Assembly: GCA_000004985.1 (NCBI GenBank)
Contig: GG738921.1
Source of the DNA: Naegleria gruberi
Lineage: Eukaryota
Direction: 5' to 3' (one strand)
Length of the DNA stretch: 64,000 bases
Position numbers and translations under genes: made by a program. Under the pieces are notes generated by a model. It ran no database searches. It was not told where the DNA came from and saw only the letters and a program-made list of their open reading frames with translations. The stretch's first letter is position 1; each line of letters starts with the position of its first letter. Shown here one piece after another: positions 18,041-62,993 of this stretch.

Positions 18041-18828
18041 NNNNNNNNNNNNNNNNNNNNNNNNNNNNNNNNNNNNNNNNNNNNNNNNNNNNNNNNNNNN
18101 NNNNNNNNNNNNNNNNNNNNNNNNNNNNNNNNNNNNNNNNNNNNNNNNNNNNNNNNNNNNNNNNNNNNNNNNNNNNNNNNNNNNNNNNNNNNNNNNNNNN
18201 NNNNNNNNNNNNNNNNNNNNNNNNNNNNNNNNNNNNNNNNNNNNNNNNNNNNNNNNNNNNNNNNNNNNNNNNNNNNNNNNNNNNNNNNNNNNNNNNNNNN
18301 NNNNNNNNNNNNNNNNNNNNNNNNNNNNNNNNNNNNNNNNNNNNNNNNNNNNNNNNNNNNNNNNNNNNNNNNNNNNNNNNNNNNNNNNNNNNNNNNNNNN
18401 NNNNNNNNNNNNNNNNNNNNNNNNNNNNNNNNNNNNNNNNNNNNNNNNNNNNNNNNNNNNNNNNNNNNNNNNNNNNNNNNNNNNNNNNNNNNNNNNNNNN
18501 NNNNNNNNNNNNNNNNNNNNNNNNNNNNNNNNNNNNNNNNNNNNNNNNNNNNNNNNNNNNNNNNNNNNNNNNNNNNNNNNNNNNNNNNNNNNNNNNNNNN
18601 NNNNNNNNNNNNNNNNNNNNNNNNNNNNNNNNNNNNNNNNNNNNNNNNNNNNNNNNNNNNNNNNNNNNNNNNNNNNNNNNNNNNNNNNNNNNNNNNNNNN
18701 NNNNNNNNNNNNNNNNNNNNNNNNNNNNNNNNNNNNNNNNNNNNNNNNNNNNNNNNNNNNNNNNNNNNNNNNNNNNNNNNNNNNNNNNNNNNNNNNNNNN
18801 NNNNNNNNNNNNNNNNNNNNNNNNNNNN

Positions 18829-33212: not shown

Positions 33213-34830
33213 CAATATTACAATTCCATTAGAAACATGTGTTTATTCTACCACGTAAAAACTTCCTTATGGAGATGGAATCTAATTCCATTTCTTTCAT
33301 TTGCATCCCAAATGGCATTCGAAACTGAAGTTACCAATTGTTCTGGACCACAAACTAAAACACCAACATATGCATTCAATTCTCCTCTTTCTTTCATTTC
33401 CTTTTTCACTTGTTCCAAGAATTGTTTTGGATTGGCTCTTCCTTTATGAATAAATGCTGTTTGTTGTGAATTTTCTTCTTTCATTTTGGAAATGAAAATA
33501 TTTGGTTTTAAATTCTTATTTCCATTCGTTTCCAAGAGTTGAGGAAATACTTGAATCATATCAGTGGTTGGAATTGACCAACAAGTATAAACAGTCTTAT
33601 CTTGAATATTCTTTTCCAACAAGTGTGAATAAATTGAATGAACTGGTGTAATACCAATTCCACCACCAAACATGACAATTGTCTTGTATCTCAATAATGG
33701 AACTGATAATGATCCATAAGCACCTTCAACTCTACAAATTAATTCATTGGCTGATTGAGCCTTCTCTTGAGCAATTTTTGCAACTTGTTTTGACCATCCA
33801 CTTCCAAAATTCTTTACATGAACTGTAAATTCTAATTCCTTCTTTTTAATCATTCCACCATCAATTTCCTTACAACTACTAACTGTGATTGGATGGTGTT
33901 GATATTTTGAAACAGCAGGAATGTATAAGAATATGAAATGTCCCATTGAAGGATTACTGCCAAATGTCAAGAATGGTTTTCTCATTGTAATGGTTGTAAC
34001 TTGACTCTTTTCATCATATTTGATTGAATCAATTTTGGTTGGAATACCAAATCCAAATACCACTCTCAAAAATACATCAAACAGATATAATAAAATTGAT
34101 AATGCCATATAAGGTAATAAATTAATATATCCAGAACCATGAATAATTGATAAAATGACAATTAAAATGGACAAGATGACATGTGAAATTAAAAAGACCT
34201 CCCATAGCTTTCTTCTTATGACTGGGAATGTCATTAACCAAAGAATAGTCATGAAAAACCATGCAATAATTCCCAAAATTGGAAATGTTGGAGATGTCAC
34301 ATCAACTAAATATAATCCAGATGCATTATAATGAACAACCATTGCAATTCCATGAGCAGTTACAAAAAACCATTGTAAAATACCCAACCATCTGTGATAT
34401 TTAATTGCTCTATCAAATGAAATTCCAAATAAAACTTGTAAAACTGAATATCTCGTGACTGGAAATAAAATTAATCCAAAATTGAAAACACAAACAGAAG
34501 CAAATGCTTTTCCAGCTTCAGCTGATGTTGCATTCACATATCCAAATGCAAACCAAATGGCCACAAGAATCCAATAACATGAAATTACAACAGCTTCACC
34601 CAAAGTTAAATCTAAAATGGTATTAATGTAAATTCCAATAAATTTCAAATTGACTTGTTTGGTCAATCTTCTGTACAAGATCAAATCAAGGAATAGATTT
34701 GGATTCACTCTTGGTCCAATCACACTCAATAAGAATCCACCAATAACCAACAATCCACAAATGAATGCAGTAGCAATCAAATGCCATCTGTAGGAATTGG
34801 CAAGTTTGGTCAATGAGTTCATTGAGATAC
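33213..34830. repeat. Inverted-repeat arm A (~1.6 kb) of a near-identical inverted duplication; partner arm at ~43900..45499
   Basis: 3' ~520 codons of FRE copies A and B differ at only 4 residues (I/V, I/V, I/V, E/D). Identity extends ~35 bp past the stop codons, where antisense ORFs 33180..33449 and 45272..45484 share the identical string MCLFYHVKTSLWRWNLIPFLSF... Identity breaks at ..GSISMNSLTK/NSYRWHLIATAF. Confidence 0.8.
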
Positions 34831-36136
34831 TTCCATCCTTAATGTTGCCAGTAGAAGAACCACATGTGGCCAATTCACTGCCAGGAGGAGCTGCCAAGTG
34901 TGCCAAAGTAGCTGTTTGTAAAAAGTTAATCATGACATTTTTGCCTCTGTAATTGTGGACATATTCCATGGATGTAGATGTTTTGGCTATAGCCCAAGAA
35001 ATTGAAATTTGTGCATTTGTAAATAAGTGATCCAATGAATCCTTAGTATTGACCAAACGTGTCCATTTCAAATGAAGTTCATAATTTCCACTCACAGATC
35101 TTAATCCTCCATTTTTGGAAATGAAATCTTGAGATGAATCTAATGTTGGTGCTTGAAGATTACCTTGCATGTATGTGTCTAATATAACTGGGTTTCCACT
35201 TGAATCCACATATCCAAACATTGTATCAGCAGTGTCCATTCCAGAGTTGGTTCCATGATTAAATCCAATTGATGCATAGCCATAAATTCCTGTGGCAATC
35301 AATCCAAATTCAATAATTGGTACATTTGCATCATTTGGATTTGTTAAAACTTTCCAATACAATTTCAAAGAATCAGAAGTTCCATAATTAGCAACTAACT
35401 TGTAATTAGCTGTAGGATAATCAGCAGAGTTGACCCACTGAGTTAAAATACTTTGTGAATATCCAGTTTGAAGTGAACAGGTCGAATTACTACTACTAGA
35501 ACCTCCATCCGAAACTACTGGTTGACTTGGCAATACTCCATACTCACCAGTAGCATAACCAGCTGAAAGGAAATTCAAACTTGGACCTTTGCCAGTGCTG
35601 GTATGTCTAACCATTCCAGTACTGGTGGAGTGGAGTGCCCAGGAAGTTTTCATGACTGCATTGGTGAAAATGACATCGTGGGAATCTCCTGTTTTAACGA
35701 AACGTGTCCACTTGATATGTGTCTCACCTGTGGCCGAGTTGTATCCACCATTTCTTTGAAGGATATCATCGGAAGCATCACTCACTGGTGATTGTGGCTT
35801 TGCAACCATCCATGCATCCATGATGGTTACACTTTGAGAAGCACTATTATAATACCCGAAAACTTTATCAATTCATCATCATTAATAATATTAAGTTAAT
35901 ATTGCCAATAACAACTTACTGGTATCACCCTTCATTGGATCTCCATTTAAATAACCAAAGCAAAACGAGACGTAACCTCTCGTGTTTTTGGCCACAGCTC
36001 CAAATTCCAAGATTGCATCATTAATATCAGAGCTTTTTTCATTCCTTAATAATTTCCAATATAGCTTGAGATTGGAACTGAATGTGGCCACATTTCCCGA
36101 TGGATAATCAGTGGAAGATACAAACTGAGTATTCAT
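33248..36136 (-). CDS. DOMON-domain ferric reductase / NADPH-oxidase-like flavocytochrome, copy A; exon 2 33248..35862, intron 35863..35919 (57 nt), exon 1 35920..~36136 with unresolved 5' end (no signal peptide found)
   Basis: Extracellular repeats (NYKLVANYGTSDSLKLYWKVLTNPNDAN..), about 6 TM helices with conserved His (HRWLG..AHG), FAD site HPITVSS, NAD site MFGGGIGITP and CGPEQL. Exon 1 homolog ..VYSQSMNTQFVSSTDYPSGNVATFSSNLKLYWKLL..GDPMKGDT. Upstream in-frame sequence is hydrophilic (..HHHHYKILDTYNNYNTTRRIKGSERK). Confidence 0.7.
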
Positions 36137-37165
36137 ACTCTGACTGTATACAATAGTTGCCTTACGTTCCGAACCTTTTATTCTTCTAGTTGTATTATAA
36201 TTATTATAAGTATCTAATATTTTATAATGATGATGATGAAACTCTTGAAAGCAACAACAACATCATCATCATCGTCAATACAATAATCAAACTCCTTAGC
36301 CATTGACTCGAAATTAAATGATGATTCTTTGATAACGCCATTTTTCTTATTACTTCTTAATTTGTTTTAAAAGTGCATCACAATTTGGCCATTACTGTTC
36401 ATTCATATCTCTCACTTGTGTATGGCCACTGTAATAGAAGAAGGTTCTTAGAAGTGGAGTGGATCAGTCTTTGGGTTTTCCAAGTTCTTCATTCCAATAT
36501 TAGTTCTGATAATTATTAGTGAAAGAATATAATTTGGAAAGTCTGCAATCTTAATCAATGCCATCTTGATGTCATTATCCTATCTCATTTCCTTTGAAAG
36601 TTCAGCATTGCATTAGAAATCATTTCCAACACCGTTAAAGAATTTCAGAAACAATTTCATTGACTTTGGGTATTCTAATCAATTTCTATTTTCCCAGATA
36701 GGAGTGTTAAATCTATTGCTTGCAACCAGATGGTTACCTTTTTGGAAATTTACAGTATTGAAGCTTGTTTCTTTGACATGGTTTACAATGCTATTTTCAA
36801 TTTTGAGTTCTCATAGAACCATTCAAAGTTGATTGTAAATTGTAATTTTATAAAATATATGGAAATCTTTATTAATAATCTTACTATCGTTAAATTAGAG
36901 TTTCACGGTACACATATTTAATTGCCTACCACTTTTTCAAGAAAATCCCTTTAAAAAACCTTGATTTCCATTAATGATTCTACTAGACCATGTTTAGAAC
37001 ACGGTAACCATTTTAAATTTTACAATATCTTTGTGCATTTCCCTTCTTGTAAATTAAATATTGATACGAGACTACTTGTAAACCCTATAAATGAAGCTAA
37101 AATTGCCGTTGCTTCATTCAATAACAAACAAAAAAACAATTAAACTCATTATTCGAATCTCAAAA

Positions 37166-37342
37166 ATGTCTGCCCAACAAACTATGATTGTCATGATGCT
37201 CTTGGCTTGTATCATGTTCTTCTTTGCCTCACCAATTAATGCTCAATATTATGAATCTGAAGTTTATGCTGGTGCTGCTGAACAAGGTTTTGCTGCCATG
37301 TTGTTGATTGCCATCTTGGCTGTTATTGGAATGGTATTCTAA
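37166..37342 (+). CDS. Small hypothetical secreted/membrane peptide (58 aa; signal peptide + C-terminal hydrophobic segment)
   Basis: MSAQQTMIVMMLLACIMFFFASPINAQYYESEVYAGAAEQGFAAMLLIAILAVIGMVF. Short ORF, weak support. Confidence 0.3.
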   Translation: MSAQQTMIVMMLLACIMFFFASPINAQYYESEVYAGAAEQGFAAMLLIAILAVIGMVF

Positions 37343-38166
37343 ACTACTGATGTAATTCTAATAATTTCACTCTTCTTCCTTTGTATATTAACTAGTAGTG
37401 TCAGCACCCATACCGGTATGCCATTAAACAAAGTGGCATACACCATATTGTATAATATTTGTAACAGTAAATAACATTGTTATTTGAATTCATTGTCAAA
37501 ACAATTAACCAACAGAGTTAGAAGAAGATAAGCTGCTCACTTTGTTTGATTGCGAAAACTCAATTAATTACTCGGTAACAATCAGAAAGGATTACAGACA
37601 AGCTTGCACCATGCCAAAATTTACATTTTTCAAATATTGTAAAAAAAAATTGTGAAAAATGTTAGGTTCACTGTGGAGAGGCTGATTTTCGGAGTGGTTT
37701 CTCGTGATGAAACTCTGCGAATTTCACAACATTATTTCAACACGACTTGAATAGTAGTAATAATAGTAATTTTTATTGGTGGATTAGAATTATGAAAATT
37801 GGAAATTATTTTTCGTGATGGAAAAATTCAAGGTGATGTTTCCATCACATCCGTATCATTCACTACTATATCTGCTGGAAAAGTGTCAAAGCAACATTGT
37901 TCGGAATGGTCAATAGTAGGGTAGGGAACTTTCTCTGGTAAATTTTGAGCAAGTTTTGATAGGTAAAAAACGAATTTACAAACAACATAGATGTTAAATG
38001 TGAATAATTTTCACCACTTCAGAAATCACTCAACAACCTGATTTGCAAGCTATAAAACAATAAATAGGTTTTACCAACACAAATAAGAAAACCACATAAT
38101 ATTACCGTTACGAAATTCAACAAAAAAAAATACAACAATCTGTACCAACATGATGACTGAATGCTT

Positions 38167-39384
38167 TTACTTGAGTGGGACGTAGGCAGGTCTTCTCATC
38201 TCACTTCTTCTTCTGCTCACATAAATAATTCCCACCACAGCAATCGAAGTTGCCAAAACCATCAACACCCCACCAATGGTAGCACATATAATGATGGCCA
38301 GATTTTCCTCCTCCTCCAAAAGTGATGATAGACCTCTGGGAGGATGATTCTGAGAGGATTTTCCAACAATTGGATGGAATGGATGTGGAGAAATTCCCCT
38401 CCTAAAGGTGGGATAGTCCTGTACGGAGAAGGTTGTGCCATTCATCATGATGTTTAAATCTCCGTAGAGTGAGTGGATGTAATGGCTGTTTTGGCAGAGT
38501 TTGCATTTGGAGTTTTGACTTCCTTCGATGCAACTTTCCATCTTGTAGCTCATTACTGAGAATTTTGTAAAGATTTCCAGTTGACCTTTGATTTGAGCAG
38601 CAGCTCCTTTGCATTCATCACGTGAAGTTTTCTGAATAATCATTTCATAGTTGGCTGTGAGAATATCATATCTGTTAGTGGTTGGTTCAATTTGAGTTGC
38701 ATTTCTAAACTTGACAAATAATTCAGTGCTTGGATCTGGATTTGTGGAAAACCAATTCGAATCATCATGATACAGAAAATTATATTGGAAAGTATCTGAT
38801 GGATAGGGAATTTCACTCCTTTCCAGAATTACTGTCAATGCATGACTATGTAATGTGATACGAGTGCAATTATTCTCCTCTGAAAATGCAAATGAATATC
38901 CACGAACATATTGAATCCACTTGTAACAGCCATAGGATATGACCGATTGACTAACAGAAGAAAATAATCCAATATTCACCTGACAGGTTAAACTAGCTTG
39001 TGATCCAAATTGAAGAATGGTATCATTTTGGACTAGATTAAATGTTGAATGTTGAATATTGACCATAATATCTTTAAATTCATCGGATTTTCTCTCAAGG
39101 TCAACTATATGGAAACGTGCTGTTGAAGAACCAAACCAGACAAACATTTGATTAAAATCACTTTCTCTCGTTTGGCTTTCCTTCATGTAAATGCTCCGAT
39201 AATAGTTTCCCGATAGACATTCATTACTTTTCACAAATTGACCATTCGTCAGTAGAAGTAGTATGCATATCATCATGATAAAGAAAAGTATTGATGTAAA
39301 ATTAATGTTGTTGTTGGTGCTGAATTGATGAAGTTTAGGTGTAGACATTTTTTCTTTAAATTCAGGAGTTTTGGCAGTTAACAC
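38167..39384 (-). CDS. Hypothetical type-I membrane glycoprotein-like protein (N-terminal signal/anchor, large ectodomain, single C-terminal TM, short basic tail)
   Basis: 405-aa ORF. N-terminal hydrophobic stretch ILFFIMMICILLLLTNG, a Cys-containing ectodomain with many N-x-S/T sites, and a C-terminal TM IIICATIGGVLMVLATSIAVVGIIYV followed by SRRRSEMRRPAYVPLK. Confidence 0.5.
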   Translation of the reverse strand: MLTAKTPEFKEKMSTPKLHQFSTNNNINFTSILFFIMMICILLLLTNGQFVKSNECLSGNYYRSIYMKESQTRESDFNQMFVWFGSSTARFHIVDLERKSDEFKDIMVNIQHSTFNLVQNDTILQFGSQASLTCQVNIGLFSSVSQSVISYGCYKWIQYVRGYSFAFSEENNCTRITLHSHALTVILERSEIPYPSDTFQYNFLYHDDSNWFSTNPDPSTELFVKFRNATQIEPTTNRYDILTANYEMIIQKTSRDECKGAAAQIKGQLEIFTKFSVMSYKMESCIEGSQNSKCKLCQNSHYIHSLYGDLNIMMNGTTFSVQDYPTFRRGISPHPFHPIVGKSSQNHPPRGLSSLLEEEENLAIIICATIGGVLMVLATSIAVVGIIYVSRRRSEMRRPAYVPLK

Positions 39385-39861
39385 ACCGAATCTCCATTGA
39401 GGGCGTTGACACTGTAAAATTTCGTCCGCACCATGATGTATTTGCCCTTAGATTGGTTCAACACCATGTTACCATTGTTGTATCCAAAGCATTAAGTTGA
39501 TGTTATTAATTTCACATATATCCAAATTGGAAATGAATAAATTTGGAATATTGCCAAAGCTGGAAAATAAGGGAGTTTGATAAATAAACTGGACTAAATT
39601 TTTTAAATTTATCAAACAAACTCAAACAAAATGAATAGAGAAGAATCCAAACAAGAACAAATTCTATCCGCACAAAGAAAGCAACATCCACATCTAGGAC
39701 CATCTGGTTGGCCACCAATGAATAAGAAGAGGGATGATACAATCAGCACAGAAAGAATCCAAGGTCGAGAGAATGCTCCTCATGTTGGTGAATCCAGTGT
39801 AAACTTTAATCAAACAGAGGATCATGATTGGGTTGTTTTGTAAATATTTTACATTGATATA

Positions 39862-40830
39862 TTATACAGTTGTTTTAGCAGTAAATTCCTCTTCCAAACC
39901 TTCCAAAGTAGAAAATCCATCTGATAATGTAATGATTGTTACATCACACAAATCTGTCTTTTCGTTAAACTTGTAAATAAAGTGAGTGCCAACATTATTT
40001 TCATCCTCATAGAATAGAACGTTGTAATCAGCTGTTCCATTTCCAGAAATTACACTAGGATACACTCTATACTTGACATTTCGTTTTAATATCAAGTCTC
40101 CTGATTGTTTAAAGTCAATATCTGAAAGTTGAATTTCAAATTTGCTAGGTCCTCCTAAAATTACAAATTTTTCTATTCTCAATCGTTAGAATATTCACAA
40201 TTCTCGTTCAAACTTACCTTTGGCGAGAATGGCAACCTTATTTTGAATCAAATAAGCATCGAATAAGGAACTAGGATTGATTCCGTGCAAACTCAAATCA
40301 ATTTTGGTCCATCCACTGTGCATTTGTGCTGAACCAAGATTTCCAGTAATGTACAATTCATTATTCTCGGTACAAATTAAAGAAACCCATTGTCCAGCAC
40401 TAATAGCCTTAATCTTACTATTTGTTGGAACAGTTAGAGGCATTGGATCATAAATCTTGTTTGGTGTTGCATACCCCAATTGTTGATAATCATTAGATCC
40501 GAAAACAACTCCACTATCATCCTCAAATATTACTATACAATAAGCATAACCAGAAGCAATCAGTTTGACTGATTTCCCCTTCACTAATGGTGATGCTATT
40601 TCAACAGGTGTATGAATATCATGTTCAGAATCTGATGGTTGTTTAGCAAACTGTGCAAGACCTGTATTTCCACAAAAATACAATCTCTTATCAGGTACAG
40701 TCACAAAGTAGGTGTGGCCATATCCAGAGTAGGCAGATCCGAATGCCTGTACACCTTCTGGAACGACAACCTTCTTGGCCTTGATTTGTTTGGTATAATC
40801 GAGTGAATTCTTATCATCAGTTCCAGTTTG
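39862..40830 (-). CDS. RCC1/BLIP-II-like beta-propeller repeat protein, 5' partial (upstream exons likely span N-gap 41035-41084); exons ~40218..40830+ and 39862..40154, intron 40155..40217 (63 nt)
   Basis: Repeats: GQTGTDDKN, YGHTYFVTVPDKRLYFCGNTGLAQ, GYAYCIVIFEDDSGVVFGSNDYQQLG, SAGQWVSLICTENNELYITGNLGSAQ. AAAG|GTAAGT..TTTTAG|G joins ..AILAKG to GPSKFEIQL in a consistent phase. An acidic exon (KEFGDGLEDEKNENGDDG) runs into the gap at 41085-41160. Confidence 0.55.
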
Positions 40831-41177
40831 TCCCCTTTATAATTAGATCCAAAATATTTTACATCATGATCAATTTGTTGATGATTTAATTATTTAATTA
40901 GATCATTTATAATATTTAAATATTCATATGATGATGATGATGATTGATGAGATGGAATAATAAATTTTGATCAATTCCAAGATCATTATATTAATATATT
41001 AATAATATTAAAATTACACACAAATGATCAAAGANNNNNNNNNNNNNNNNNNNNNNNNNNNNNNNNNNNNNNNNNNNNNNNNNNCCATCATCTCCATTTT
41101 CATTCTTTTCATCCTCCAATCCATCACCAAACTCCTTTTTATAAAATAAAAGGAATAATTTAAATTATAATAATTGT

Positions 41178-41939
41178 TTAATATTTATTCCATTTAACAG
41201 ATTCATCAAGCATAGAGCAGAAATAATCAAATTCAATTCTAATCATCTTCTCTTCAGGTTTGTAAATTAATTTAAATTGATTAATTCCAAATTTCCATAA
41301 AATACCATCATGCTCCCATTTAAATGCATACCACTTATCACTAAACAAAGGAGGAAGGCTATAATTTCCAGCAAACAACCAATGATATGTTATCTTTGGA
41401 ACTATTCTTCCTTCCCTTGCAATGCCACCCTCAATCAACATCTCTTCTTTTAAAATGCTATATGGTTTTGCCTTTTGTATTTGATAATCAAAGAATAGCT
41501 TTGCTTCGTGATCATCTGTTACAGAAACATAATGTTGATGATGCCACTTGACATTATGGGTTGTATCTGGCTGAGCATTTCTAATAACTACCTCCTCAAT
41601 AGTTCTCGGAAGTACCTTTAGGTATCTTGTTGCATAATATTCATCAGAATATTTTTCATCCATTATCTCACGCAGTGTTATTGTTGGTAGGGAAGTATCA
41701 AAAAAGTATTCAAGTTGTTGTCTTTTCTCTAATGGTATGTTCACTTTCTTACTCTCTTCACTGCCTTCAAGAATGTTTGTTACTTGGCGTTTAGCTGTTT
41801 TCAAATCATCAACCTTCTCTACAACAAAACGTATTTTGTTTGTATTGTTATTCTTCTCCAACGATTTATTCATAGCTACCCTCTTACTTTTGCTCAACCT
41901 GTATACTTCAAATGTTACTTCTGTTTTGTTGGTGACCAT
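41178..41939 (-). CDS. Hypothetical protein (253 aa), no recognisable domain
   Basis: Clean ORF from ATG at 41939 with ordinary amino-acid composition. A (CAA)n-type microsatellite lies in the upstream leader region. Confidence 0.45.
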   Translation of the reverse strand: MVTNKTEVTFEVYRLSKSKRVAMNKSLEKNNNTNKIRFVVEKVDDLKTAKRQVTNILEGSEESKKVNIPLEKRQQLEYFFDTSLPTITLREIMDEKYSDEYYATRYLKVLPRTIEEVVIRNAQPDTTHNVKWHHQHYVSVTDDHEAKLFFDYQIQKAKPYSILKEEMLIEGGIAREGRIVPKITYHWLFAGNYSLPPLFSDKWYAFKWEHDGILWKFGINQFKLIYKPEEKMIRIEFDYFCSMLDESVKWNKY

Positions 41940-42484
41940 AGAAAATACTTGTTTGTTTTGTTTTGATTTTGTTGTTGCTCATGTTGTTGTTGTTGTTGAT
42001 ATGTGGTGTTGTTGATGTTATTGTATTTTTTTTTACGTGAGTTTACAAATTGAAAAACAAGCAAGAATGAAACGCGGTGCCAAATGGAAATAAGATAAAA
42101 AACTGATAGGTAATGCATTCTGGACATTGTTGAATGAACCATTATCGATATCTAGTGTATAAAATAATCTCCTTTTGGTTAGCGACATGAATTGTTGGGA
42201 GCTGTTAATATGTAAAAGGTCAAAACGAAACACCCAATTTTTCATGTTTCCTTTCCGCTCTACTTCAAGTTTCGAATAACGTCTATTGGGGCTACCTGAA
42301 GAACACAATGATTAAGAGAGAACTTCACATGCCAATTCTTTTGGTGAACGATTTCTCAAAGTTTCCAATGGTTTCGGATAGGTGATGCAAATAGCCACTT
42401 GGATTCTTTTAGCCATTTGTTTCATCAGAAAGTCAATTTAGGTTTCAGCCCTTGCCGAACTTGTAACTGGATACCAACAAAAAA

Positions 42485-45473
42485 ATGGCGTTTTATGTTA
42501 TTCGAAACTCGCAGCTCTTTCTTCTGTCTGCACTCTTGTTGGTAACAGTTTTAGCATGTCATGACCCAGCACATGCAGCAAACGTTACCTATAGCCAAAG
42601 TATTGAAACTCAATTCGTAAATCCCTCTGATTATCCAGCAACAAACGTTGCCTCTTTCGGTTCGAATCTGAAACTTTATTGGAAACTCTTAAAAAACGAA
42701 AAGAGTTCAGATATTAATAATGCCATTCTAGAATTTGGTGCTGTTGCTCTTCGTACTAAAGGTTACCTTTCCTTTTGTTTTGGTTATTTAAGTGGAGATC
42801 CAATGAAGGGAGATACCAGTAAGTTATTTTTTTATTCGAAAGTTCTAAAGCATTAATATTCAATCTAAAGTCTTTGGTTTCTTCAATCAAGCTTCAGGTA
42901 GCATCACTGTTATGGACGCTTGGATGACTAACAAACCTGCACCACCAACCAGTGATCCCTCTGATGATATCATCCAGAAGAATGGAGGGTTTCGAACAGT
43001 TAATGGAATATCCGAAACTCACATGAAATGGACACGTTTCGTCAAGACCAACGATACTAGAGATGTTGTATTTACTAACACTGCCATGAGAATGTCCTGG
43101 GCTATTCACTCAACTAGTACTTCAATGGTGGAACATACCAGTCAAGGAAGTGGCACAACTGTTAACTTTCTTTCGGCTGGATTCGTAACTGGTGAATATG
43201 GAAAGCTTCCACAACCACCAGTGATTGCAACAGGAGGTGGAAATAACTGTTCACTTCCAACTGGATATTCACAAAGTATTTTAACTCAGTGGGTCAATTC
43301 TGCTGATTATCCTGCAGCTAATTACAAGTTAGTTGCTAATTATGGAACATCTGATTCTTTGAAATTGTATTGGAAAGTTTTGACCAATCCAAATGATGCC
43401 AATAATCCAATTATTGAATTTGGATTGTTGGCTACAGGTATTTATGGTTATGCTTCACTTGGTTTCAATCATGGAGCTAGTTCAGGAATGCAAACTGCTG
43501 ATACCATGTTTGGTTATGTAGATTCAACTGGTAAGGCAGTGATTATTGATGCTTACATGCAAGGAAATTTGCAAGCACCAGCTCCAGACACCACTCAAAA
43601 TTTTATTTCAAGCAATGGTGGTTTGAGATCTGTCAATGGCAATTATGAACTCCATTTGAAATGGACACGTTTGGTAAATACTAAGGACGCTATGGATTAT
43701 ACATTCAGCAATGCACAAATTCCAATTTCATGGGCTCTTTCCAAAACTTCTACTTCCATTACTTCTGTTCACAGTTACAGAGACAAGAATGTCATGATTA
43801 ATTTCATGCAAAATGGAGCTTCCACTGAAATGGCAGCTCCTCCTGGCAGTAGTTTGGCATGTGGATCAAGTAGTGGTTCACAAACTGGAACTGTTGTCAT
43901 TGATGAAGGTTTGAAATTAGCAAATTCCTACAGATGGCATTTGATTGCTACTGCATTCATTTGTGGATTGTTGGTCATTGGTGGATTCTTATTGAGTGTG
44001 ATTGGACCAAGAGTGAATCCAAATCTATTCCTTGATTTGATCTTGTACAGAAGATTGACAAAACAAGTCAATTTGAAATTTATTGGAATTTACATTAATA
44101 CCATTTTAGATTTAACATTGGGTGAAGCTGTTGTAATTTCATGTTATTGGATTCTTGTGGCCATTTGGTTTGCATTTGGATATGTGAATGCAACATCAGC
44201 AGAAGCTGGAAAAGCATTTGCCTCTGTTTGTGTTTTCAATTTTGGATTAATTTTATTTCCAGTCACAAGATATTCAGTTTTACAAGTTTTATTTGGAATT
44301 TCATTTGATAGAGCAATTAAATATCACAGATGGTTGGGTATTTTACAATGGTTTTTTGTAACTGCTCATGGAATTGCAATGGTTGTTCATTATAATGCAT
44401 CTGGATTATATTTAGTTGATGTGACATCTCCAACATTTCCAATTTTGGGAATTATTGCATGGTTTTTCATGACTATACTTTGGTTAATGACATTCCCAGT
44501 CATAAGAAGAAAGTTGTGGGAAGTCTTTTTAATTTCACATGTCATCTTATCCATTTTAATTGTCATTTTATCAATTATTCATGGTTCTGGATATATTAAT
44601 TTATTACCTTATATGGCATTATCAATTTTATTATATCTATTTGATGTATTTTTGAGAGTGGTATTTGGATTTGGTGTTCCAACCAAAATTGATTCAATCA
44701 AATATGATGAAAAGAGTCAAGTTACAACCATTACAATGAGAAAACCATTCCTAACATTTGGTAGTAATCCTTCAATGGGACATTTCATATTCTTATATAT
44801 TCCTGCTGTTTCAAAATATCAACACCATCCAATCACAGTTAGTAGTTGTAAGGAAATTGATGGTGGAATGATTAAAAAGAAGGAATTGGAATTTACAGTT
44901 CATGTCAAGAATTTTGGAAGTGGATGGTCAAAACAAGTTGCAAAAGTTGCTCAAGAGAAGGCTCAATCAGCCAATGAATTAATTTGTAGAGTTGAAGGTG
45001 CTTATGGATCATTATCAGTTCCATTATTGAGATACAAGACAATTGTCATGTTTGGTGGTGGAATTGGTATTACACCAGTTCATTCAATTTATTCACACTT
45101 GTTGGAAAAGAATGTTCAAGATAAGACTGTTTATACTTGTTGGTCAATTCCAACCACTGATATGATTCAAGTATTTCCTCAACTTTTGGAAACGAATGGA
45201 AATAAGAATTTGAAACCAAATATTTTCATTTCCAAAATGAAGGATGAGAATTCACAACAAACAGCATTCATTCATAAAGGAAGAGCCAATCCAAAACAAT
45301 TCTTGGAACAAGTGAAAAAGGAAATGAAAGAAAGAGGAGAATTGAATGCATATGTTGGTGTTTTAGTTTGTGGTCCAGAACAATTGGTAACTTCAGTTTC
45401 GAATGCCATTTGGGATGCAAATGAAAGAAATGGAATTAGATTCCATCTCCATAAGGAAGTTTTTACGTGGTAG
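42485..45473 (+). CDS. DOMON-domain ferric reductase / NADPH-oxidase-like flavocytochrome, copy B (intact, with signal peptide); exon 1 42485..42818, intron 42819..42897 (79 nt), exon 2 42898..45473
   Basis: Signal peptide MAFYVIRNSQLFLLSALLLVTVLACHDPAHA. Duplicated extracellular DOMON-like modules. TM region with His pairs, HPITVSS (FAD), GGGIGITP and CGPEQL (NAD). The GTAAGT..TTCAG junction is phase-1 consistent, giving ..GDTS|SITVMDAWM... Confidence 0.85.
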
Positions 45474-45499
45474 AATAAACACATGTTTCTAATGGAATT
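43900..45499. repeat. Inverted-repeat arm B, partner of 33213..34830
   Basis: See arm A. Nucleotide-level near-identity in reverse-complement orientation includes the 3' UTR. Confidence 0.8.
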
Positions 45500-45519: not shown

Positions 45520-48252
45520 CTAGAATAAAAACTCGCAGTCAGCAAATCTTGAACTATCCACTAATTTTTCAAGTTTTCTAATCATGAAAATCCAACTATT
45601 GTTGTGTTCTGTCTTTTTGGTAAAAAACACAATCATATTATCCAATCCAATACTCAGGTTCAAATCATATCCATATCTAGCTAAGTATGGAGCAAATCTA
45701 ACCTTTAGCAAAGACAAATGATTAAATTGAACCATTTTTTCACTCTCTTTGATAAATTTAGTTCCATCCTCTTGCTCGTCTTCATTTTCAGGTACAGCAC
45801 TTATTGATCTGATTCCAGATGAGTCTCCAGAGAAGAAGAATGTTCTATCATCTCTTATTGAGCTATTAGCTTGATGATATTGGAAAGGAACTAACATTTT
45901 GTTCAAATAGTTAGAATTGTGAATACCCGTAATAAATCTAGAATCTAAATTTTTCGTAGCATCTTTAGAACATTCCAGTACCATCGAATATTGTTCAGAA
46001 AAAATTGATGAAGGACGGAGCTTGTTCAAAGTCTCATGTATCTTGAAGTGAGTTGTGAAACTGTAAAATGACGGGTAGCCAATCTCACTATAAGCATTAC
46101 TTCCTAAAATAAAGCTGGTATAGTCTTCTAGTGAAAAAATAACACCTTCTGGTAATTTAGAAATATTTACAATATTACCATGTAACCTATTTTCCAAAGT
46201 ATTAAAGTACATTTTAAATTCAAAATCAGATTTTTCAATCAAAATTGGATAAGGAAGAGGATTTTGAATCCTAGTCAGATCATTACGTTCAATGAGTGTC
46301 AAAACTTCTAAATTTTCCTTCCAGTTATCGTATGCATCTCCAATTAGTATTGATCCTGATTCTGTAAGAACATCCGTAAAGGCTCTAAAGTATTGTGTAT
46401 CGCTATCAAAGTAGGCATCGACTGGTACAACATGTCGTTTTGACTCATTATTAATATCATTTCTATTCCTGAAATTTTCGCATCCTTTTGGCCCTATTTG
46501 CAGGAAAGGATTCAGAAGAGAAAAGGTCAGTAAATGTGCAGCGTAACCCTTTGCTGGGAAGTGATAAAGTTTGTTACATTTAGTAACAATAAATGATTCA
46601 TAAAATGTGTTAACAAGTTGATGAACTCCTTGATAACCTTTCTGAGTAAAGCAAAATTGATTTTCAAAGAAAATGAGATCCTTTCTCTTATGTGAAATGT
46701 TCAAAACAAACAGTTCAGTGATATTTTTTGTCAAATCAATTTCACTGAAAATGTCTAGAGAAAGTAGAGTGCATATTTGAATTGCGAATTGATAATTTGT
46801 AATTATTTCAGTGAAAATCAAGTATGCTAAATCTCTCAAAAATAGTGTTTCAAATGAAGAATACTTTCCTGCTTGAAGATATCCATCCTTAAATACTGCT
46901 ATTAATAATTGAATAATATCATTGGAAGTGATATGTTCTTCAACAGATGATATCAGTTGGATAAGTGTTTCAAGTCTTTTCATGGCATTTTGACTTTGAA
47001 TAGTTTTATCCTCTACTTTAGGTGCTTCATTAATTCCTTCCAGAACAGTGAATCCAATTTGTTCCATTTCGAATGAGAATGAGTTAATCCAATCTTTGAT
47101 AATATGGAAGATATCTAAAGAATTCATTATTTGCCAAAGCCAATAGCACGTAGATTTCTGGACTACATATCCATTAAATATCAAGTCCTTGCTTCTGCCA
47201 ATATTTTGTGAAATTAAGTATTCCCTAATGCTTTCTGTAGTGACTGTTGAGATTCTACAAAGAATAAATTGTGAGCTTTCAAAATTATGTAATCTTCCAG
47301 AAAAGTAAATGTTTCCTTGCTCTGTTACAAGTATTGTGTGCTGAGAACCGCATGCAACTTTGACTGGTCGTTCATTGTGAAATAAAGAAGAAGTTACTTG
47401 TTGAGCTTTGCATGGTTCTGTATGTGAACAATTTGGAATTGATAATTGTTTTTGTAAATTTTGCCCAAAAGCATACAATTGATTAGATTCGGTAATGAAG
47501 AAGGCAAAATCAGCTCCGTTATGAATTGATTCAATTTTTTCTTCCACCATACAATCACCATCGTATAGTGAAATCTTTGATAGAGTTTCCACAGACTGTA
47601 TTCCATCTCCAACATCACCTGTATTTAAAAATATTATTATTGTTTCGAATAGAAATTACAACTTACCAATAATATAAACTTGTGAATCACATTCATTTAA
47701 AATCATGGTACCATTTTCCAAACTAACAATCTGTTTTATCCTAAACTTTGCACCTTCCACTCTATCAGGAATTTTAACTCCGATCAAGTATGTCATCAAG
47801 CTGTCATCCTCTGCCAAATCCAATCCAAAGTTCTTCTCCTTCTCTCCCAACTCTCCATTCGGTTTTAAATCAGCAAGTTCCGCAAAATTTACTCTCCTTT
47901 GCATCCTTTGTACAAATGATTTAATTTGTTTCTCATAATCATCAATATCAATCAAACATTGTGTATTAGTATTTCTACCAGTAACAAATACAATATTTTG
48001 CAACGGATTATCCTCATCACCTTCTTCTCTCCAATATTTTCTCTTCTTTGAACCATCACCATCACCACCAGCACCACTACCATTACCATCATCACTCTCA
48101 TCCATATTTTCGGAAGAGATCGCCCGATCAGATGAAAATAATTCCACTTCACCAGTACCTTCCGGAATGATCGACGTGGAAAATCCTAACAAACTGGCCT
48201 GTAAAGCAAAATTTAGAGCAGCCAAATGGATCGGAGCGGCTGATGAAAGCAT
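45520..48252 (-). CDS. Hypothetical protein with N-terminal RCC1-like repeats (~890 aa); exon 1 47667..48252, intron 47619..47666 (48 nt), exon 2 45520..47618
   Basis: Exon 1 ends ..CDSQVYIIG|GTAAGT. Exon 2 begins after ATACAG| with GDVGDGIQSVE..FAFFITESNQLYAFGQNLQKQL..KVACGSQHTILVTEQGNIYFSG (RCC1-like blades), followed by a ~550-aa region without recognisable domains. Confidence 0.65.
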
Positions 48253-49516
48253 TTTGATGTAATTTTTTTAAAATTTTAATTATAATAAAATTAAAAGATT
48301 TCTTGTTGTGATGGTGATCATCAAATAGTGAAGATTCAGACCATTAGTATTAAAATTCAAGTTTGTTGTTATCAATTAAATCAAACAAATAAAAAATTTG
48401 AAAAAAAAATAATCACTTCATCTCAGCATTGCTGATTATCTTCATCATTTCAATACGGAATACATTGATATTCAATGTACATCATCTTTGGATATCCATC
48501 AATAGTAGAATAGTAATTTTATTGTTTGAAATTTTAATCATCAAGAAATTTAATATCATCATCACTTGGGAAAAATTTCAAATCAATAAATACATCTCGG
48601 ATGTTGTTAGAACAGGTTAATTTGCTGTTCTAATAGTATTTTAAATAGTATTCCGCAAGTTTACTCTTTGAAATTATTTTTAATTTGGCTCAAAGTCGAT
48701 TTTCATCAAAATCATTAAAATCGGCCTATCTACTTGGTCATCACAAAAACCATCAATTGGAGATTGTTCATAATAGTAAATAGTATTTGTGGGGTCAATT
48801 TTGGAGACTGGATCTTTGTCTTCATTGGAATAGATACAAGATTATTTTCAACATGTAATGAATAATACCTCGTCATCTACTTGACCAAATCAAAAACTTT
48901 CTTCTAGTAGTACTATTTATTTTCACAATATATAACATCTTCATCGTTACTTTCTTCAATAGCATTGTCATTGTCATGGTGGAGGTTTCATCACCTATCC
49001 ACACATGTACAATATCGGAACATCATTCCAATATCATGGAGATGCTCCAATAAGTGTGGAGAATCATCCCACCAAGTTTTTTATCTTTAATAAAAGTGTT
49101 TCTCTTTTTTCACACTTTCTCAAGATTTGCAATTGTTCCTTCACATGATACTATTGATTTCAGAATCATATTTTGTTGTTAATTTTCAAAATGGATCATT
49201 ATTTGAGGAGATTTTGAGATACTTGATTTTACAGATCTAATAAAATTGCAGATACATTTTGTAATAACTGCTTAACATGAACTTCTGCAAAATTACAACA
49301 AACAAGCATTCAATAAGGCGGACATTTCCTATTGTCCTCGATGAATATTGATTCTTGAATATATTACTAATGAAAGAATGCGTGCGCAGCAGTATTTTTC
49401 ATTCTCACTAGTATAACCAAGTAGAAGTTTGTTTTAAAAATTTAAAAACTTCAAAAAAAATTAAATCACTTCTCGCCCACAACAAACTTGCAGCAGCACA
49501 TCATTTCTTTAGAAGA

Positions 49517-50593
49517 ATGACAAGTACTGGCACCTCCTCCAGTAATGGTAGAACCATGAAGATTTTGGTAGAGAGGGTTATTATGAATGATAATTCAGCA
49601 ACATCTTCATCTTTGAATACAACAATACCTGATCATTGGGATGTTCCGAAAAATTCATCATCTTCAACATCTTCACCTACTACAGTAGTAATACCTCCAG
49701 AAAAGTTTAAAGATCCTTGGATTGGAGTGAATCATGATAAATCAGTACTCGATGGAATGTCAATGATGAAGGATTTCTTATTTAATTCACCATCAATTCC
49801 GAGTGATGAAGAACTTCCTCAATTGAAACCGAATTGGGATAAATTAATGAACCCTAGTGAGTCTTCTGATGAATATCAAGTGACATGGATTGGACATTCG
49901 ACCTTTCTCATTCAGTACAGAGGTGTAAATATAATAACAGATCCTGTATTTTCAGAGAGATGTAGTCCTTCACAGTATTTTGGTCCAAAGAGAATTAAAC
50001 CAATTCCATTTCCAGATATCTCTAAATTGCCAAAGATTCATTTTGTGATTATATCTCATAATCACTACGATCATTTGGATGAACATGCATTCAAAGAGAT
50101 ACAGAAACATCATGATCCAATTTTCTTGTTACCATTCAAAATGAAATACAAGTGGATGATGAAACATTATTCAAATAGTGATGCCGAGAAGGAAAAACTT
50201 GTAGATTTGGATTGGTGGAAGGAAACTACATTCAAGGTTACAGCTGAGAATCAGACAGTTTCCAATCTGTCATTCGTATGTCTGCCAGCTCAGCATTGGA
50301 GTTCAAGAACAGGGTTTGATAGAAATCACGTCTTGTGGGGTTCTTGGGGATTCAAGTTTGATTATACTGATGGCAATGAGAATGTGACAAGATCTTTCTG
50401 GCATGCAGGTGATACAGGTTACAAGTAAGTAGACTTTTAATATTCATTCCTTAATAATTTTTTCAATAGTGGACAAACATTTAATCAAATTGGAGAACGA
50501 TTTGGTCCAATTGACTTTTCAATGATTCCAATTGGTGCCTATGAACCACGTTGGTTCATGAGTGATCAACATGTTGATCCAGAAGAAGCCATT
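49517..50593 (+). CDS. NAPE-PLD-like metallo-beta-lactamase-fold (zinc) hydrolase; exon 1 49517..50424, intron 50425..50469 (45 nt), exon 2 50470..50593 continuing into N-gap 50594-50867 (3' partial)
   Basis: [32 protein letters not shown] (metal-binding HxHxDH), AGDTGY|N|[40 protein letters not shown]. This closely matches the conserved C-terminal block of animal NAPE-PLD (..[33 protein letters not shown]). The N-terminal ~110 aa are S/T-rich. Confidence 0.8.
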
Positions 50594-50867
50594 NNNNNNN
50601 NNNNNNNNNNNNNNNNNNNNNNNNNNNNNNNNNNNNNNNNNNNNNNNNNNNNNNNNNNNNNNNNNNNNNNNNNNNNNNNNNNNNNNNNNNNNNNNNNNNN
50701 NNNNNNNNNNNNNNNNNNNNNNNNNNNNNNNNNNNNNNNNNNNNNNNNNNNNNNNNNNNNNNNNNNNNNNNNNNNNNNNNNNNNNNNNNNNNNNNNNNNN
50801 NNNNNNNNNNNNNNNNNNNNNNNNNNNNNNNNNNNNNNNNNNNNNNNNNNNNNNNNNNNNNNNNNNN

Positions 50868-51119: not shown

Positions 51120-54100
51120 ATGTCAACAACATTCGACCAAGTCTTCCATGCAGTTTCGGAAGGAAACATTGAATTTTTGAGACACATTGATTTACGTCCA
51201 TTTATTAATCATGAACAAGATGATCCCGACGATGAAGGTATTGTTACATTATTATGTACAGCGTGCGGCAGAGGACATTTGAAAATTGTAGAATTATTAT
51301 TGAATGTTGATGGAGTTGATGTAAACAAATGTGTATGTTTTCATAGATTAATTATTTGATGTTGAATGTAAATCTTTGAAATTTATATATGAAAATAGGG
51401 ACCGTTGTTTTTTGCTTGCCAAAACGGATACGTAGAAATTGTAAAATTATTGTTGAGTGTTGATGGAATTGATGTTAATCAAATTGTATGTAATAATGGA
51501 ATGAATAATGGAATGGTATATTTATATTAATGATTTTTATGATTATCTATAATAGAGAGTGTTACGTGAAGCATGTGAAAAAGGCTATTTTGAAATTGTA
51601 AAATTATTATTGGACTTTGATGGAATTAATGTTGACGCTTATGTATGTAGCAAATATTAATATTAAGAAGTTTAATATTAATTCTTCTTATTAGAAAGCA
51701 TTGCATGGAGCATGTTATGGAGGGAATTTTAATATTGTAAAATTATTACTTGCCAAGAATGCTCGAATAGGAAAAGAAGAAAGAAAAGAATATGATAAAA
51801 AAATCAAACCGAAAGTAAGTTTAGTTTTCAGATAAGTGTCAAATATAGTCCAATATTAGTTCAATCTCGAATATACTTTGGATGAATTAAAGGATAAAAT
51901 CTCACAATTACGAATTCAACATTGGAGAAATGTGANNNNNNNNNNNNNNNNNNNNNNNNNNNNNNNNNNNNNNNNNNNNNNNNNNNNNNNNNNNNNNNNN
52001 NNNNNNNNNNNNNNNNNNNNNNNNNNNNNNNNNNNNNNNNNNNNNNNNNNNNNNNNNNNNNNNNNNNNNNNNNNNNNNNNNNNNNNNNNNNNNNNNNNNN
52101 NNNNNNNNNNNNNNNNNNNNNNNNNNNNNNNNNNNNNNNNNNNNNNNNNNNNNNNNNNNNNNNNNNNNNNNNNNNNNNNNNNNNNNNNNNNNNNNNNNNN
52201 NNNNNNNNNNNNNNNNNNNNNNNNNNNNNNNNNATAATGATAAGAGAGAGTTGATAAATGAAATTGAAAGAGTTGAAAATAGTTTGAGAGAACATGAAGT
52301 TAATTTTGAATGTTTCCAAAATGTTAACAAATTGAAATTGAAAAAGAAAGATTTGTTCAAGTCACTAGCTGAAATCAAAGACAAAATAGAAGATATTGAA
52401 TATGCTAAAGACACACTTATATTCGAAATTAAAACTCAAAAAAGAAACAAGATTGGTAAAGTTGAGGAAATTGAAAGATTGGAGAAGAAACTTTCTGACA
52501 TGATTCAGGAATTATCAAACATGCACGAAAGAAAATCAGAAATCCAAAACGACTTGATGGAGCTGATTCCTAAATTTCCTGAAATTATTATTGAAATGGA
52601 ACAACCATTAGCAATAGATGGTGTTGTCATTTCATCATCAATGACACCAAAAGAAAAATTCAGAGTATTTGCACTTCAAAACTCTATTTTACTTTTAAAT
52701 ACTCAATTTTCAAATTATACTAACATTCAAACACTTCACACTGGATTATCAGTTGTTTACAAAGCAAGCAAATCTAATAGTCAGGTGGTTATTCTCAAAG
52801 AAATTTCTCTTTCAGAAAATAATTGTGAAACAGTAATGAATGAAATTATGAATTTGGTTATACTCAAAGGTCATCCTAGAATTATCAAATTGAATGGTGT
52901 ATTTATTGAATCACAATTTAATAAGGTTTATATTGAAACACCATATTATTCAAATGGAAATTTACTGGAGTATATCAACAAGATTAGAAATCATCATGAT
53001 TTACCAACTTTGAAGAACATGTTGAGAAGTTTATTTAGAAAAATGACAGAAACACTTCAATTTATCCATTCCAAAGATATTCTGCACAGAGATTTAAAAC
53101 CTCAAAATATTTTGGTGAATGAAAATGGAGAACCAATTATTGCAGATTTTGGATCAAGTAAGAAACTAATTGCTCAATTGACAAATAATACAATGGGAGT
53201 TGGAACATTGAAATATATGGCACCAGAAGTGAAAAGACAAGAAGAATCACCAAGTGAAAAATCAGACATTTGGTCATTGGGTGTTTCATTGTATGAATGT
53301 TGGCAATTGATTCAACAAATAAGTATGATGAATAATGCAACAGTTGAAATATTGAACTTTGACTCGAAGGGTAAGGTAGTTTTACCTACCAGTACTTTGA
53401 ATGATGAAATTGATATAACATTGATGAAAATGTTGAGTCACATGTTCAATAGCAATCCAGAAGACAGACCAAGTTCATTAACACTACTGACAGATTCAGA
53501 TTATTTCACAAATGAAAATCCTACAACAGATATACTTTCTAAATCTAATCAAAAAGAATTGGAAGGTTCTGAAAAGATATCACTTTGGCAAGCAAGATTA
53601 AAGAAGATGAAACAATTTTTGCCTGAAAGCACAGAAGGAGAAATCAAGGTTGACATCTATAGACACCGTCTATTGGAAGATATTGCCTCTATATATAAGG
53701 ATTTGATACCAATAGGGTATTCAGTGATATTTTACAAAACATTTGTGAAATATAAGGGAGAGACTGGAATAGACGCAGGAGGATTATCCAATGAGATGTA
53801 TTCTAAATATATTGAAGCCATACTGGAAAGCAAACATTTTCAAAATAGCGAAAGCTCACCAAATGAAAATTTCATTTTAACTGATGAACCACTCACAGAT
53901 GAATCTAAAAATCAATTGAGAACACTTGGGTTGTTATTGAAAAAGTTATTAATTGACTGTGACGACAAGACAGTTTATCTTCCATTGAATAGCTTTATAT
54001 TTTATTATTTATTGAATGGAAATGCTCTCAACAAAGAAACACTCCAATTTAATGCTATATCCCTTTTACTATCAAAATTCTTGAGAGAATATGATTTTGA

Positions 54101-54773
54101 ATTGGATAATCAAATATTTAGTGTGAAAAAATGTAAAAATGATGAAGAATTACAATCAATTACAATGGAAGAAACATTTATTGATGTTTTATCAAAGAGT
54201 GAGAAACCATTAATAATGGAAAATGTTCAATTATTCATCATTTCACAATTATATTCATATTTTTATTCTGATTTAAAGATTGAAAAATTGAAATTAATCA
54301 AACAAGGATTTGACTGGTTTAATTTGACTAAATTCAAACAAAGCTCAAAATTACCACCCAAGTTGAAAGAATTCCTAGACCTCCAAGGATCAAATTTTGA
54401 TGAGAAGTGTTTGAGTGTGAATGAATTGAAAATTCTCCTCTCAGGTCAATCATATATTGATGCTGATTTATTATTGAATGAAATAGACATGACCAGAATT
54501 TCACCAATAATGCAAGATCACTTCACTAAATGTATTAGAAAATTAACAAAAAGTCAATTGAGACAATTACTTGTTTGGATGACTTCACTTTCAAGCATTC
54601 CAATCAGAGGTTTTTCAAGAAAGATCTCAATTCGTGAATATAACAGATTTGAATCTCATACCTGTTCATTTGTATTTGATATTCCATCTCAAATAACCAA
54701 TTATGAACAATTTGAAACTCAATTCATGAATTGTTTGAGATTGTCATCTGTTGCAACTATGGAAGATCAATAG
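51120..54773 (+). CDS. Ankyrin-repeat / coiled-coil / protein kinase / HECT ubiquitin-ligase multidomain protein (copy A); exons 51120..51332, 51399..51485, 51556..51642, 51695..51814, 51860..(gap 51936-52233)..54773; introns 66, 70, 52, 45 nt
   Basis: Four ANK repeats, one per exon (..GPLFFACQNGYVEIVKLLLSVDGIDVNQI, RVLREACEKGYFEIVKLLLDFDGINVDAY, KALHGACYGGNFNIVKLLLAKNA). A coiled-coil region follows. The kinase domain has VVILKEI (K), HRDLKPQNILV, ADFGSSK, GTLKYMAPE and DIWSLGVSLYE. The HECT domain has GIDAGGLSNEMY and ..FESHTCSFVFDIPSQITNYEQFETQFMNCL, including the catalytic Cys. Confidence 0.8.
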
Positions 54774-62943: not shown

Positions 62944-62993
62944 NNNNNNNNNNNNNNNNNNNNNNNNNNNNNNNNNNNNNNNNNNNNNNNNNN

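Follow-up and report, generated by a model that had tools for sequence, protein, structure and literature searches.

The window analysed here, a 64,000-nucleotide (nt) stretch of contig GG738921.1 from the Naegleria gruberi assembly GCA_000004985.1, contains two genes for ferric reductases with extracellular DOMON domains, which lie in inverted orientation and are henceforth referred to as gene A (positions 33248-36341, minus strand) and gene B (42485-45473, plus strand). We consider it very likely that A and B are N. gruberi-specific head-to-head paralogues in which partial interlocus gene conversion homogenised the catalytic halves while the DOMON halves diverged. A first-pass annotation, made from the sequence alone, had described an inverted gene pair with near-identical 3' halves, and the alignment of the two genes bears this out. 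The inverted repeat comprises positions 33222-34807 and 43914-45499, that is, 1586 nt per arm with 9106 nt between the arms, and the arms differ by 30 mismatches (22 transitions and 8 transversions), which corresponds to 98.1% identity. The left arm (minus strand) holds gene A from the codons for LANSYRWH to the stop codon together with 26 nt of 3' flank, and the right arm (plus strand) holds the matching codons of gene B and its own 26 nt of 3' flank, in which AATAAA directly follows the stop codon. These 26 nt past both stop codons, AATAAA included, are identical, after which similarity falls to random level; the shared flank is shorter than the ~35 bp originally proposed.

In a global alignment of A and B viewed in windows of 100 columns, identity was 96-100% within the arms, dropped to 56% just upstream of them, ranged from 57 to 90% over the remaining coding region and reached random level past the start codons. 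A maximum chi-square scan placed the single best breakpoint at aligned codon 488 (statistic 434), with a divergence of 29.0% to its left and 1.7% to its right, and none of 1000 permutations reached the observed chi-square. The breakpoint falls at ..LK/TK-LANSYRWH, 8 residues ahead of the first membrane helix, and the abrupt end of identity that the first-pass annotation had reported is therefore a genuine step. Its count of four conservative amino-acid differences in the arm was exact (three I/V and one E/D). Its estimate of roughly two-thirds identity upstream does not describe a uniform region, which is a mosaic with a second tract of ~95% identity, and its 9 kb spacer is correct as the distance between the arms but includes the 5' halves of both genes, the distance from start to start being 6143 nt (36342-42484). 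A self-tblastx search of the window found no similarity between the flanks of A and B outside the gene pair. Since the flanks beyond the 26 nt are unrelated, A and B are paralogues and not alleles, and since paralogy does not extend past the two genes, the duplicated unit is the gene alone.

The second high-identity tract lies at the start of the second DOMON domain (DOMON2), at 35321-35463 (minus strand) in A and at 43264-43406 (plus strand) in B. It starts right after an indel-rich linker, and identity decays toward its 3' end; over 45 codons it holds just three third-position differences, which none of 20000 permutations reached. A hypervariable linker also adjoins the membrane domain (34808-34868, minus strand, in A and 43859-43913, plus strand, in B), where identity between the copies is near random with two 3-nt indels, and it forms the 5' edge of the conversion tract. 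Both high-identity tracts thus begin where alignable homology resumes past a hypervariable linker. The simplest reading is that heterology halts heteroduplex extension at the linkers, although the boundaries may be shaped by selection for divergent ectodomains.

The distribution of synonymous divergence carries the case for gene conversion. Nei-Gojobori estimates of the synonymous (dS) and nonsynonymous (dN) divergence between A and B were obtained for each segment. In the first DOMON domain (DOMON1) dS was saturated (proportion of synonymous differences, pS, 0.78), with a dN of 0.22 (proportion of nonsynonymous differences, pN, 0.19). The first part of DOMON2 gave a dS of 0.34 and a dN of 0.05, the remainder of DOMON2 0.94 and 0.15, and the membrane-adjacent linker 0.80 and 0.60, respectively, whereas the arm, which encodes the membrane half with its flavin adenine dinucleotide (FAD)- and NAD-binding domains, gave only 0.079 and 0.004. 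When compared with the orthologue of Naegleria fowleri or Naegleria lovaniensis the same catalytic half showed a dN of 0.24, with 20% divergence at nonsynonymous sites, and a dS of 1.7-2.2, and because the arm has diverged so strongly from these orthologues, constraint cannot account for its identity between A and B. The low dS of the arm and the identity that runs on into the 3' flank instead indicate interlocus gene conversion. The earlier proposal that conversion homogenised only the membrane/FAD/NAD half is accordingly well founded, but its description of the conversion as recent needs qualification: the last event dates to a dS of ~0.08, which is not very recent, and there are at least two tracts of different ages. 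It is probable that several conversion events took place.

The differences that remain within the arm are those expected of functional genes. A total of 27 codons differ, of which 23 are synonymous and four are conservative replacements (p ~1e-12 against random error), and this synonymous excess shows that the arms are distinct, real and selected sequences and not sequencing noise. Judged from these substitution ratios, both copies are under purifying selection. Amino-acid changes polarised with the outgroups are, as derived in A to derived in B, 26:5 in DOMON1, 15:6 in DOMON2 and 2:0 in the arm. On these counts the ectodomain of A evolves approximately 2-5 times faster than that of B, yet it is still constrained, and both DOMONs of A retain the candidate heme ligands Met and His described below.

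To the full extent of our model, gene A has 984 codons and encodes, in order, a signal peptide, DOMON1, DOMON2, the ferric-reductase membrane domain, the FAD domain and the NAD(P)H domain. Its 857-residue open reading frame (ORF) at 33248-35821 (minus strand) is identical to the N. gruberi 'predicted protein' NAEGRDRAFT_75169 (XP_002669946), which begins at an internal Met and is without the first 127 residues, i.e. the signal peptide and half of DOMON1. We propose a putative exon 1 at 36243-36341 (minus strand), with an ATG at 36341 and 33 codons that encode the candidate signal peptide MALSKNHHLISSQWLRSLIIVLTMMMMLLLLSR, followed by a candidate intron 1 of 82 nt at 36161-36242 (minus strand; GT..AG, with a weak GTTTCA donor and an AG acceptor). 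Removal of this intron joins exon 1 in frame to ATIVYSQSMNTQF.., whose counterpart in B is AANVTYSQSIETQF.., and the splice product reads ...SR/ATIVYSQS, matching ...AANVTYSQS of B. Given the weak donor, the signal-peptide exon of A is best regarded as predicted, though the fit is good. Intron 2 of gene A (35863-35919, minus strand; 57 nt, GTAAGT..AG) follows ..MKGDT; its position is also occupied in gene B and in the N. lovaniensis orthologue, and the same splice is used in the public model of a third N. gruberi sequence, XP_002668181. Once the two GT..AG introns are excised, the 984-codon frame is open, with no stop codon or frameshift. Of the two options that had been offered for the missing leader of copy A, an undetected upstream exon is thus the better one, whereas a 5'-degenerate pseudogene is unsupported, given the absence of stop codons and a dN/dS ratio well below 1.

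Gene B shares the architecture of A and has 978 codons. It starts at 42485 with the clean signal peptide MAFYVIRNSQLFLLSALLLVTVLACHDPAHA/AN, as had been noted earlier, and its sole intron (42819-42870, plus strand) is 52 nt long with GTAAGT..AG borders. No protein model for gene B was found in the protein collections searched, and exact-protein look-ups of NAEGRDRAFT_75169, XP_002668181 and the B ORF in other assemblies returned no matches.

The domain assignments of the first-pass annotation were all upheld by Pfam: both A and B contain two DOMON stretches, Ferric_reduct, FAD_binding_8 and NAD_binding_6, all above the curated cut-offs. Ferric_reduct (PF01794) scored 69-71 bits in A and B against a cut-off of 28. 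For DOMON (PF03351) the cut-off is 32.7 bits and the scores were 73-76 bits, each protein matching over two stretches and XP_002668181 over three. The membrane helices carry two H-x13-H histidine pairs, HRWLGILQWFFVTAH and HVILSILIVILSIIH, in both proteins, and both pairs are kept in N. fowleri and N. lovaniensis; the dehydrogenase motifs HPIT, GIGITP and CGP are likewise present in A and B. In the ectodomain, a Met (in SGM or DPM) and a His 94 residues downstream are invariant in 9 of 9 aligned Naegleria DOMONs and are candidate heme ligands, with a spacing that resembles M90/H174 of the Arabidopsis protein HYP1. We rejected the Met in ..ADTMFG.. as a heme ligand since species differ in whether it is DOMON1 or DOMON2 that has this Met, the other having Ile, and prefer the invariant Met five or six residues upstream of it. 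At ..DT(M/I)FG.. (residues ~112 and ~324 of A and B) the N. gruberi proteins have Ile in DOMON1 and Met in DOMON2, and the state is reversed, with Met in DOMON1 and Ile in DOMON2, in N. fowleri (residues 120 and 333 of its orthologue) and N. lovaniensis.

A PDB sequence search with the ectodomain gave nothing meaningful. In an AlphaFold2 model (mean predicted local distance difference test score, pLDDT, 74.8) DOMON2 of B forms an all-beta sandwich, and the top Foldseek matches in the PDB were 4zel, 1pl3, 6jt6, 1d7c and 4qi3, the best being 4zel, the DOMON of dopamine beta-hydroxylase, which is not known to bind heme. The matches 1pl3, 1d7c, 4qi3 and 6jt6 are the b-heme cytochrome domains of cellobiose and pyranose dehydrogenases (Foldseek E 3e-4 to 5e-4, template modelling score ~0.5); sequence identity to DOMON2 is just 10-12%. 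By analogy with the plant CYBDOM protein HYP1, A and B most likely use NAD(P)H to export electrons to ferric or cupric substrates outside the cell. Cytosolic NAD(P)H would reduce FAD, the electrons would cross the membrane via two b-hemes, each held by one H-x13-H pair, and they would then pass to b-heme on the extracellular DOMONs and on to an external acceptor, for example ferric or cupric chelates.

The relatives of A and B indicate when the pair arose. The locus holds a single two-DOMON orthologue in N. fowleri and likewise in N. lovaniensis. A neighbour-joining tree of single DOMONs unites DOMON1 of A and DOMON1 of B in a clade with 99.7% bootstrap support, and the DOMON1 and DOMON2 groups each hold all species. 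The tree and the single orthologues together indicate that the two-DOMON architecture is old and that A and B were duplicated in the N. gruberi lineage alone. A tblastx comparison of the window with the N. fowleri and N. lovaniensis loci showed that only the reductase gene is shared and that the flanks are not syntenic; with synteny limited to this gene, gene order cannot be used for inferring a past inversion. In an exhaustive HMMER search, 68 cluster representatives were recovered at E <= 1e-30, of which the closest are single-DOMON ferric reductases; the named single-DOMON relatives come from N. gruberi, N. fowleri and Willaertia magna. Two of the Willaertia magna proteins (P0006 and P0154) are 731-residue single-DOMON ferric reductases that are at least 90% identical and lie on different contigs, and recent duplication or homogenisation in the family may extend beyond N. 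gruberi.

The third N. gruberi sequence, XP_002668181 (henceforth P0004), comes from a contig of 2987 nt and covers 569 residues of an incomplete protein. At the protein level its DOMON1 matches that of A with 100% identity, its second DOMON consists of alternating B-like and A-like patches, and a unique linker and a third, A-like DOMON follow. P0004 may represent the second allele of A if the strain is heterozygous, as has been reported for N. gruberi in the literature, or else a third locus; in either case it suggests ongoing recombination among these DOMON sequences.

The sequence of events that we favour begins after the N. gruberi lineage had split from N. fowleri and N. lovaniensis, when the whole gene would have been duplicated in inverted orientation. 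Non-reciprocal homologous recombination between the copies would then have repeatedly overwritten the 3' 1.58 kb, with the last event at a dS of ~0.08, and at least one further conversion, with higher residual divergence, would have spanned the start of DOMON2. The tracts would end at the indel-rich, fast-evolving linkers, where homology is lost, so that DOMON1 would have escaped conversion and diverged to synonymous saturation. The outcome would be a pair that shares one catalytic core but carries two different extracellular modules, and the subtelomeric position described below probably favours the recombination. It is also plausible, as the first-pass annotation had suggested, that the arms serve as a substrate for inversion of the intervening segment, in which case neither gene would be disrupted by a crossover within the arms.

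Several observations weigh against this account or limit it. How many conversion events there were, and in which direction they ran, is deduced from divergence levels alone. A GC-biased conversion signature was not seen in the arm, where GC content at third codon positions (GC3) is 0.23, so that conversion has left no independent compositional trace. The first exon of A hinges on the non-consensus GTTTCA donor, and the gene model is a prediction from sequence; similarly, the catalytic activity, the binding of heme to the DOMONs and the acceptor used in vivo are all predictions from homology. A 50-N gap lies between A and B, and their orientation and distance rest on a scaffold join. Finally, P0004 may represent either another allele of A or a third locus from which A received its 5' half, and this would alter the history.

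This last point leads to a history run in reverse, in which the whole-gene inverted duplication was recent (dS ~0.08) and one 5' half, most likely that of A, was overwritten from an older paralogue at the P0004 locus, so that divergence was imported and identity was not restored. We regard this as unlikely, although it has evidence on its side: P0004 is a separate sequence whose DOMON1 is fully identical to that of A and whose unique linker and third DOMON make a simple misassembly of A and B untenable, and nearly all derived changes sit in A. However, such a history still requires an old duplication and gene conversion, i.e. the same mechanism in the other direction, and the graded divergence (0.08, 0.34, 0.94 and saturated) would need several imports. 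P0004 may also be simply the other allele of A in a heterozygous strain, and the DOMON1 domains of A and B remain each other's closest relatives. Rather less probable is that A is a decaying pseudogene whose 3' half looks intact through recent overwriting by B. The main exon of A is without an in-frame start plus leader, the donor of candidate intron 1 is weak, A has 2-5 times more amino-acid changes than B, and its public model is 5'-truncated; but the whole coding sequence is free of stop codons and frameshifts after removal of the 82-nt intron, and the never-converted DOMON1, with a pN of 0.19 against a pS of 0.78, has been constrained for most of its history. Moreover, the candidate ligands Met and His are kept in both DOMONs, and the arm changes since the last conversion are overwhelmingly synonymous.

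Two further explanations dispense with recombination between paralogues. An artefact of the assembly, whether through collapse or mis-joining of a repeat or through the scaffolding of two haplotypes of a single locus as an inverted pair, seems very improbable to us, even though the scaffold is a Sanger-era draft whose 64 kb are interrupted by seven N runs, including one between A and B, and even though related sequence exists on small unplaced contigs (P0004) and redundant sequence near the scaffold end. Each arm is contiguous and N-free and has its own divergent 5' half and a unique 3' flank, and the joining of each arm to its own unique sequence on both sides is a strong argument against a collapsed repeat. 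The 30 arm differences are 83% synonymous, as for selected paralogues and not for errors, the dissimilar flanks show that the copies are not alleles, and an assembler cannot turn sequences of 71% identity into 98% identity. The remaining possibility, that the 3' half is merely under stronger purifying selection and both halves share the same duplication age, has a negligible probability. Between N. fowleri and N. lovaniensis dN is 0.056 in the catalytic half and 0.05-0.09 in the DOMONs, a difference in the expected direction but a weak one, while between A and B the halves differ more than 10-fold at synonymous sites (0.079 against 0.94 to saturated), the 26 untranslated nt after the stop codon are identical, and the arm is saturated at synonymous sites when compared with the orthologues; the synonymous-site and 3'-flank data thus refute constraint without recombination. 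We also rejected a mobile element with long terminal inverted repeats: each arm is coding sequence, namely the 3' half of a gene under selection, and a Pfam search of the spacer ORFs gave neither a transposase nor an integrase domain.

The region between the divergent start codons has no homology to the flanks outside the gene pair. It contains a small ORF (37091-37342, plus strand), an ORF for a type-I membrane protein (38167-39384, minus strand), an RCC1-like gene (39862-40704, minus strand) and a 253-aa ORF (41178-41939, minus strand), as well as the 50-N scaffold gap at 41035-41084. A second, different RCC1-like gene (45520-47592, minus strand) lies just past the 3' end of gene B, so that two of them, at 40195-40704 and 45520-47592, flank gene B; in N. 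fowleri and N. lovaniensis, too, an RCC1-like gene lies downstream of the orthologue, at a distance of ~9 kb, and no significant similarity was detected between the RCC1-like genes. In addition to the gap in the spacer, N runs occur at 1333-1382, 18041-18828, 50594-50867, 51936-52233, 57950-62085 and 62944-62993, becoming denser toward the telomeric end, and structural claims within the window depend on these scaffold joins.

The window closes with a (GGGTTT)n array (63632-64000, plus strand) that reaches its last position, and another perfect (GGGTTT)n array lies at 62755-62941. The unit TTTGGG has been published as the candidate telomere repeat of N. gruberi (PMC3622300), and together with the terminal array this places the gene pair ~18-30 kb from a probable chromosome end. 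The window thus probably ends at a chromosome end, which would make the whole region subtelomeric. Subtelomeric settings favour ectopic recombination. Two other features of this region were observed. The segment 62994-63636 is a 92% identical direct copy of 49225-49838 (part of the gene at 49517-50428), which ends ..LKPNW and is capped directly by (GGGTTT)n. Its appearance suggests either that telomere addition healed a truncated copy or that an alternative chromosome end or haplotype was joined to the scaffold beyond the 4.1-kb N gap. Two convergent ORFs of 833-840 residues at 52251-54773 (plus strand) and 55424-57925 (minus strand) make up a second inverted gene pair; they lie ~650 nt apart tail to tail and are 71-88% identical in blocks; they appear kinase-like by eye alone (HRDLKPQN motif), and the minus-strand copy is without part of the region following this motif. 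Genes in this region may have undergone inverted duplication more than once.

The architecture of A and B is real but had already been published for N. gruberi: DOMON-containing eukaryotic ferric reductases (eFRE, model M10) were described by Zhang et al. (2013, PLoS One 8:e58126; PMC3591440), who list seven N. gruberi paralogues together with homologues from Albugo and Phytophthora and note a signal peptide on a two-DOMON member. The architecture of eFRE M10 does not differ from that of A and B; the inverted pair, the conversion mosaic and gene B are not described there. A mechanistic parallel is offered by the plant CYBDOM protein HYP1/CRR of Arabidopsis, in which a DOMON heme extends a two-heme membrane conduit to three hemes and for which reduction of ferric and cupric chelates was measured (PMC10784544). 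In both cases an extracellular DOMON with a predicted b-heme, whose Met/His ligand pair is a candidate one in A and B, sits atop a two-heme transmembrane electron carrier. However, the membrane module of CYBDOM is a cytochrome b561 of unrelated fold with ascorbate as the donor, whereas that of A and B is of the NADPH oxidase/ferric reductase (NOX/FRE) type with its own FAD/NAD(P)H dehydrogenase, and the relation is one of analogy of mechanism and not of family membership.

Partial interlocus gene conversion is itself well known, textbook cases being the primate gamma-globin genes HBG1/HBG2, RHD/RHCE and the arms of the human Y-chromosome palindromes. Like these, A and B are near-identical in part of a duplicated gene, with a sharp boundary and with synonymous and non-coding sites homogenised while the rest diverged, and the human Y palindromes are also inverted repeats on one chromosome. 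They differ from them in that the host is a heterolobosean, the edge of the tract coincides with a protein-domain boundary and the pair is subtelomeric. The pair is thus an ordinary, tidy example of a well-known process and not a new kind of system. A more far-reaching possibility, drawn by analogy and to which we give little credence, is that this locus may belong to a system in which recombination diversifies the extracellular DOMON modules, the core being kept identical while cassettes are shuffled, duplicated and patched among A, B and P0004. The subtelomeric position would favour such diversification, by analogy with the subtelomeric surface-protein families of other protists. If the system exists, selection, and not merely the loss of homology, would have set the boundaries of conversion at domain linkers.

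Overall, nothing in the pair overturns current understanding. It provides a clean, quantified case of domain-limited concerted evolution in a deep-branching protist, and it corrects the annotation of two N. gruberi genes, the truncated NAEGRDRAFT_75169 and its previously unmodelled partner B. With one ectodomain evolving faster beside a common catalytic core, the pair also lends itself to testing whether specificity for the acceptor or substrate has been subfunctionalised. Extracellular ferric reductase activity has been reported for N. fowleri and awaits assignment to a gene (PMC7326272); the two-DOMON ferric reductases are candidates for it in Naegleria.

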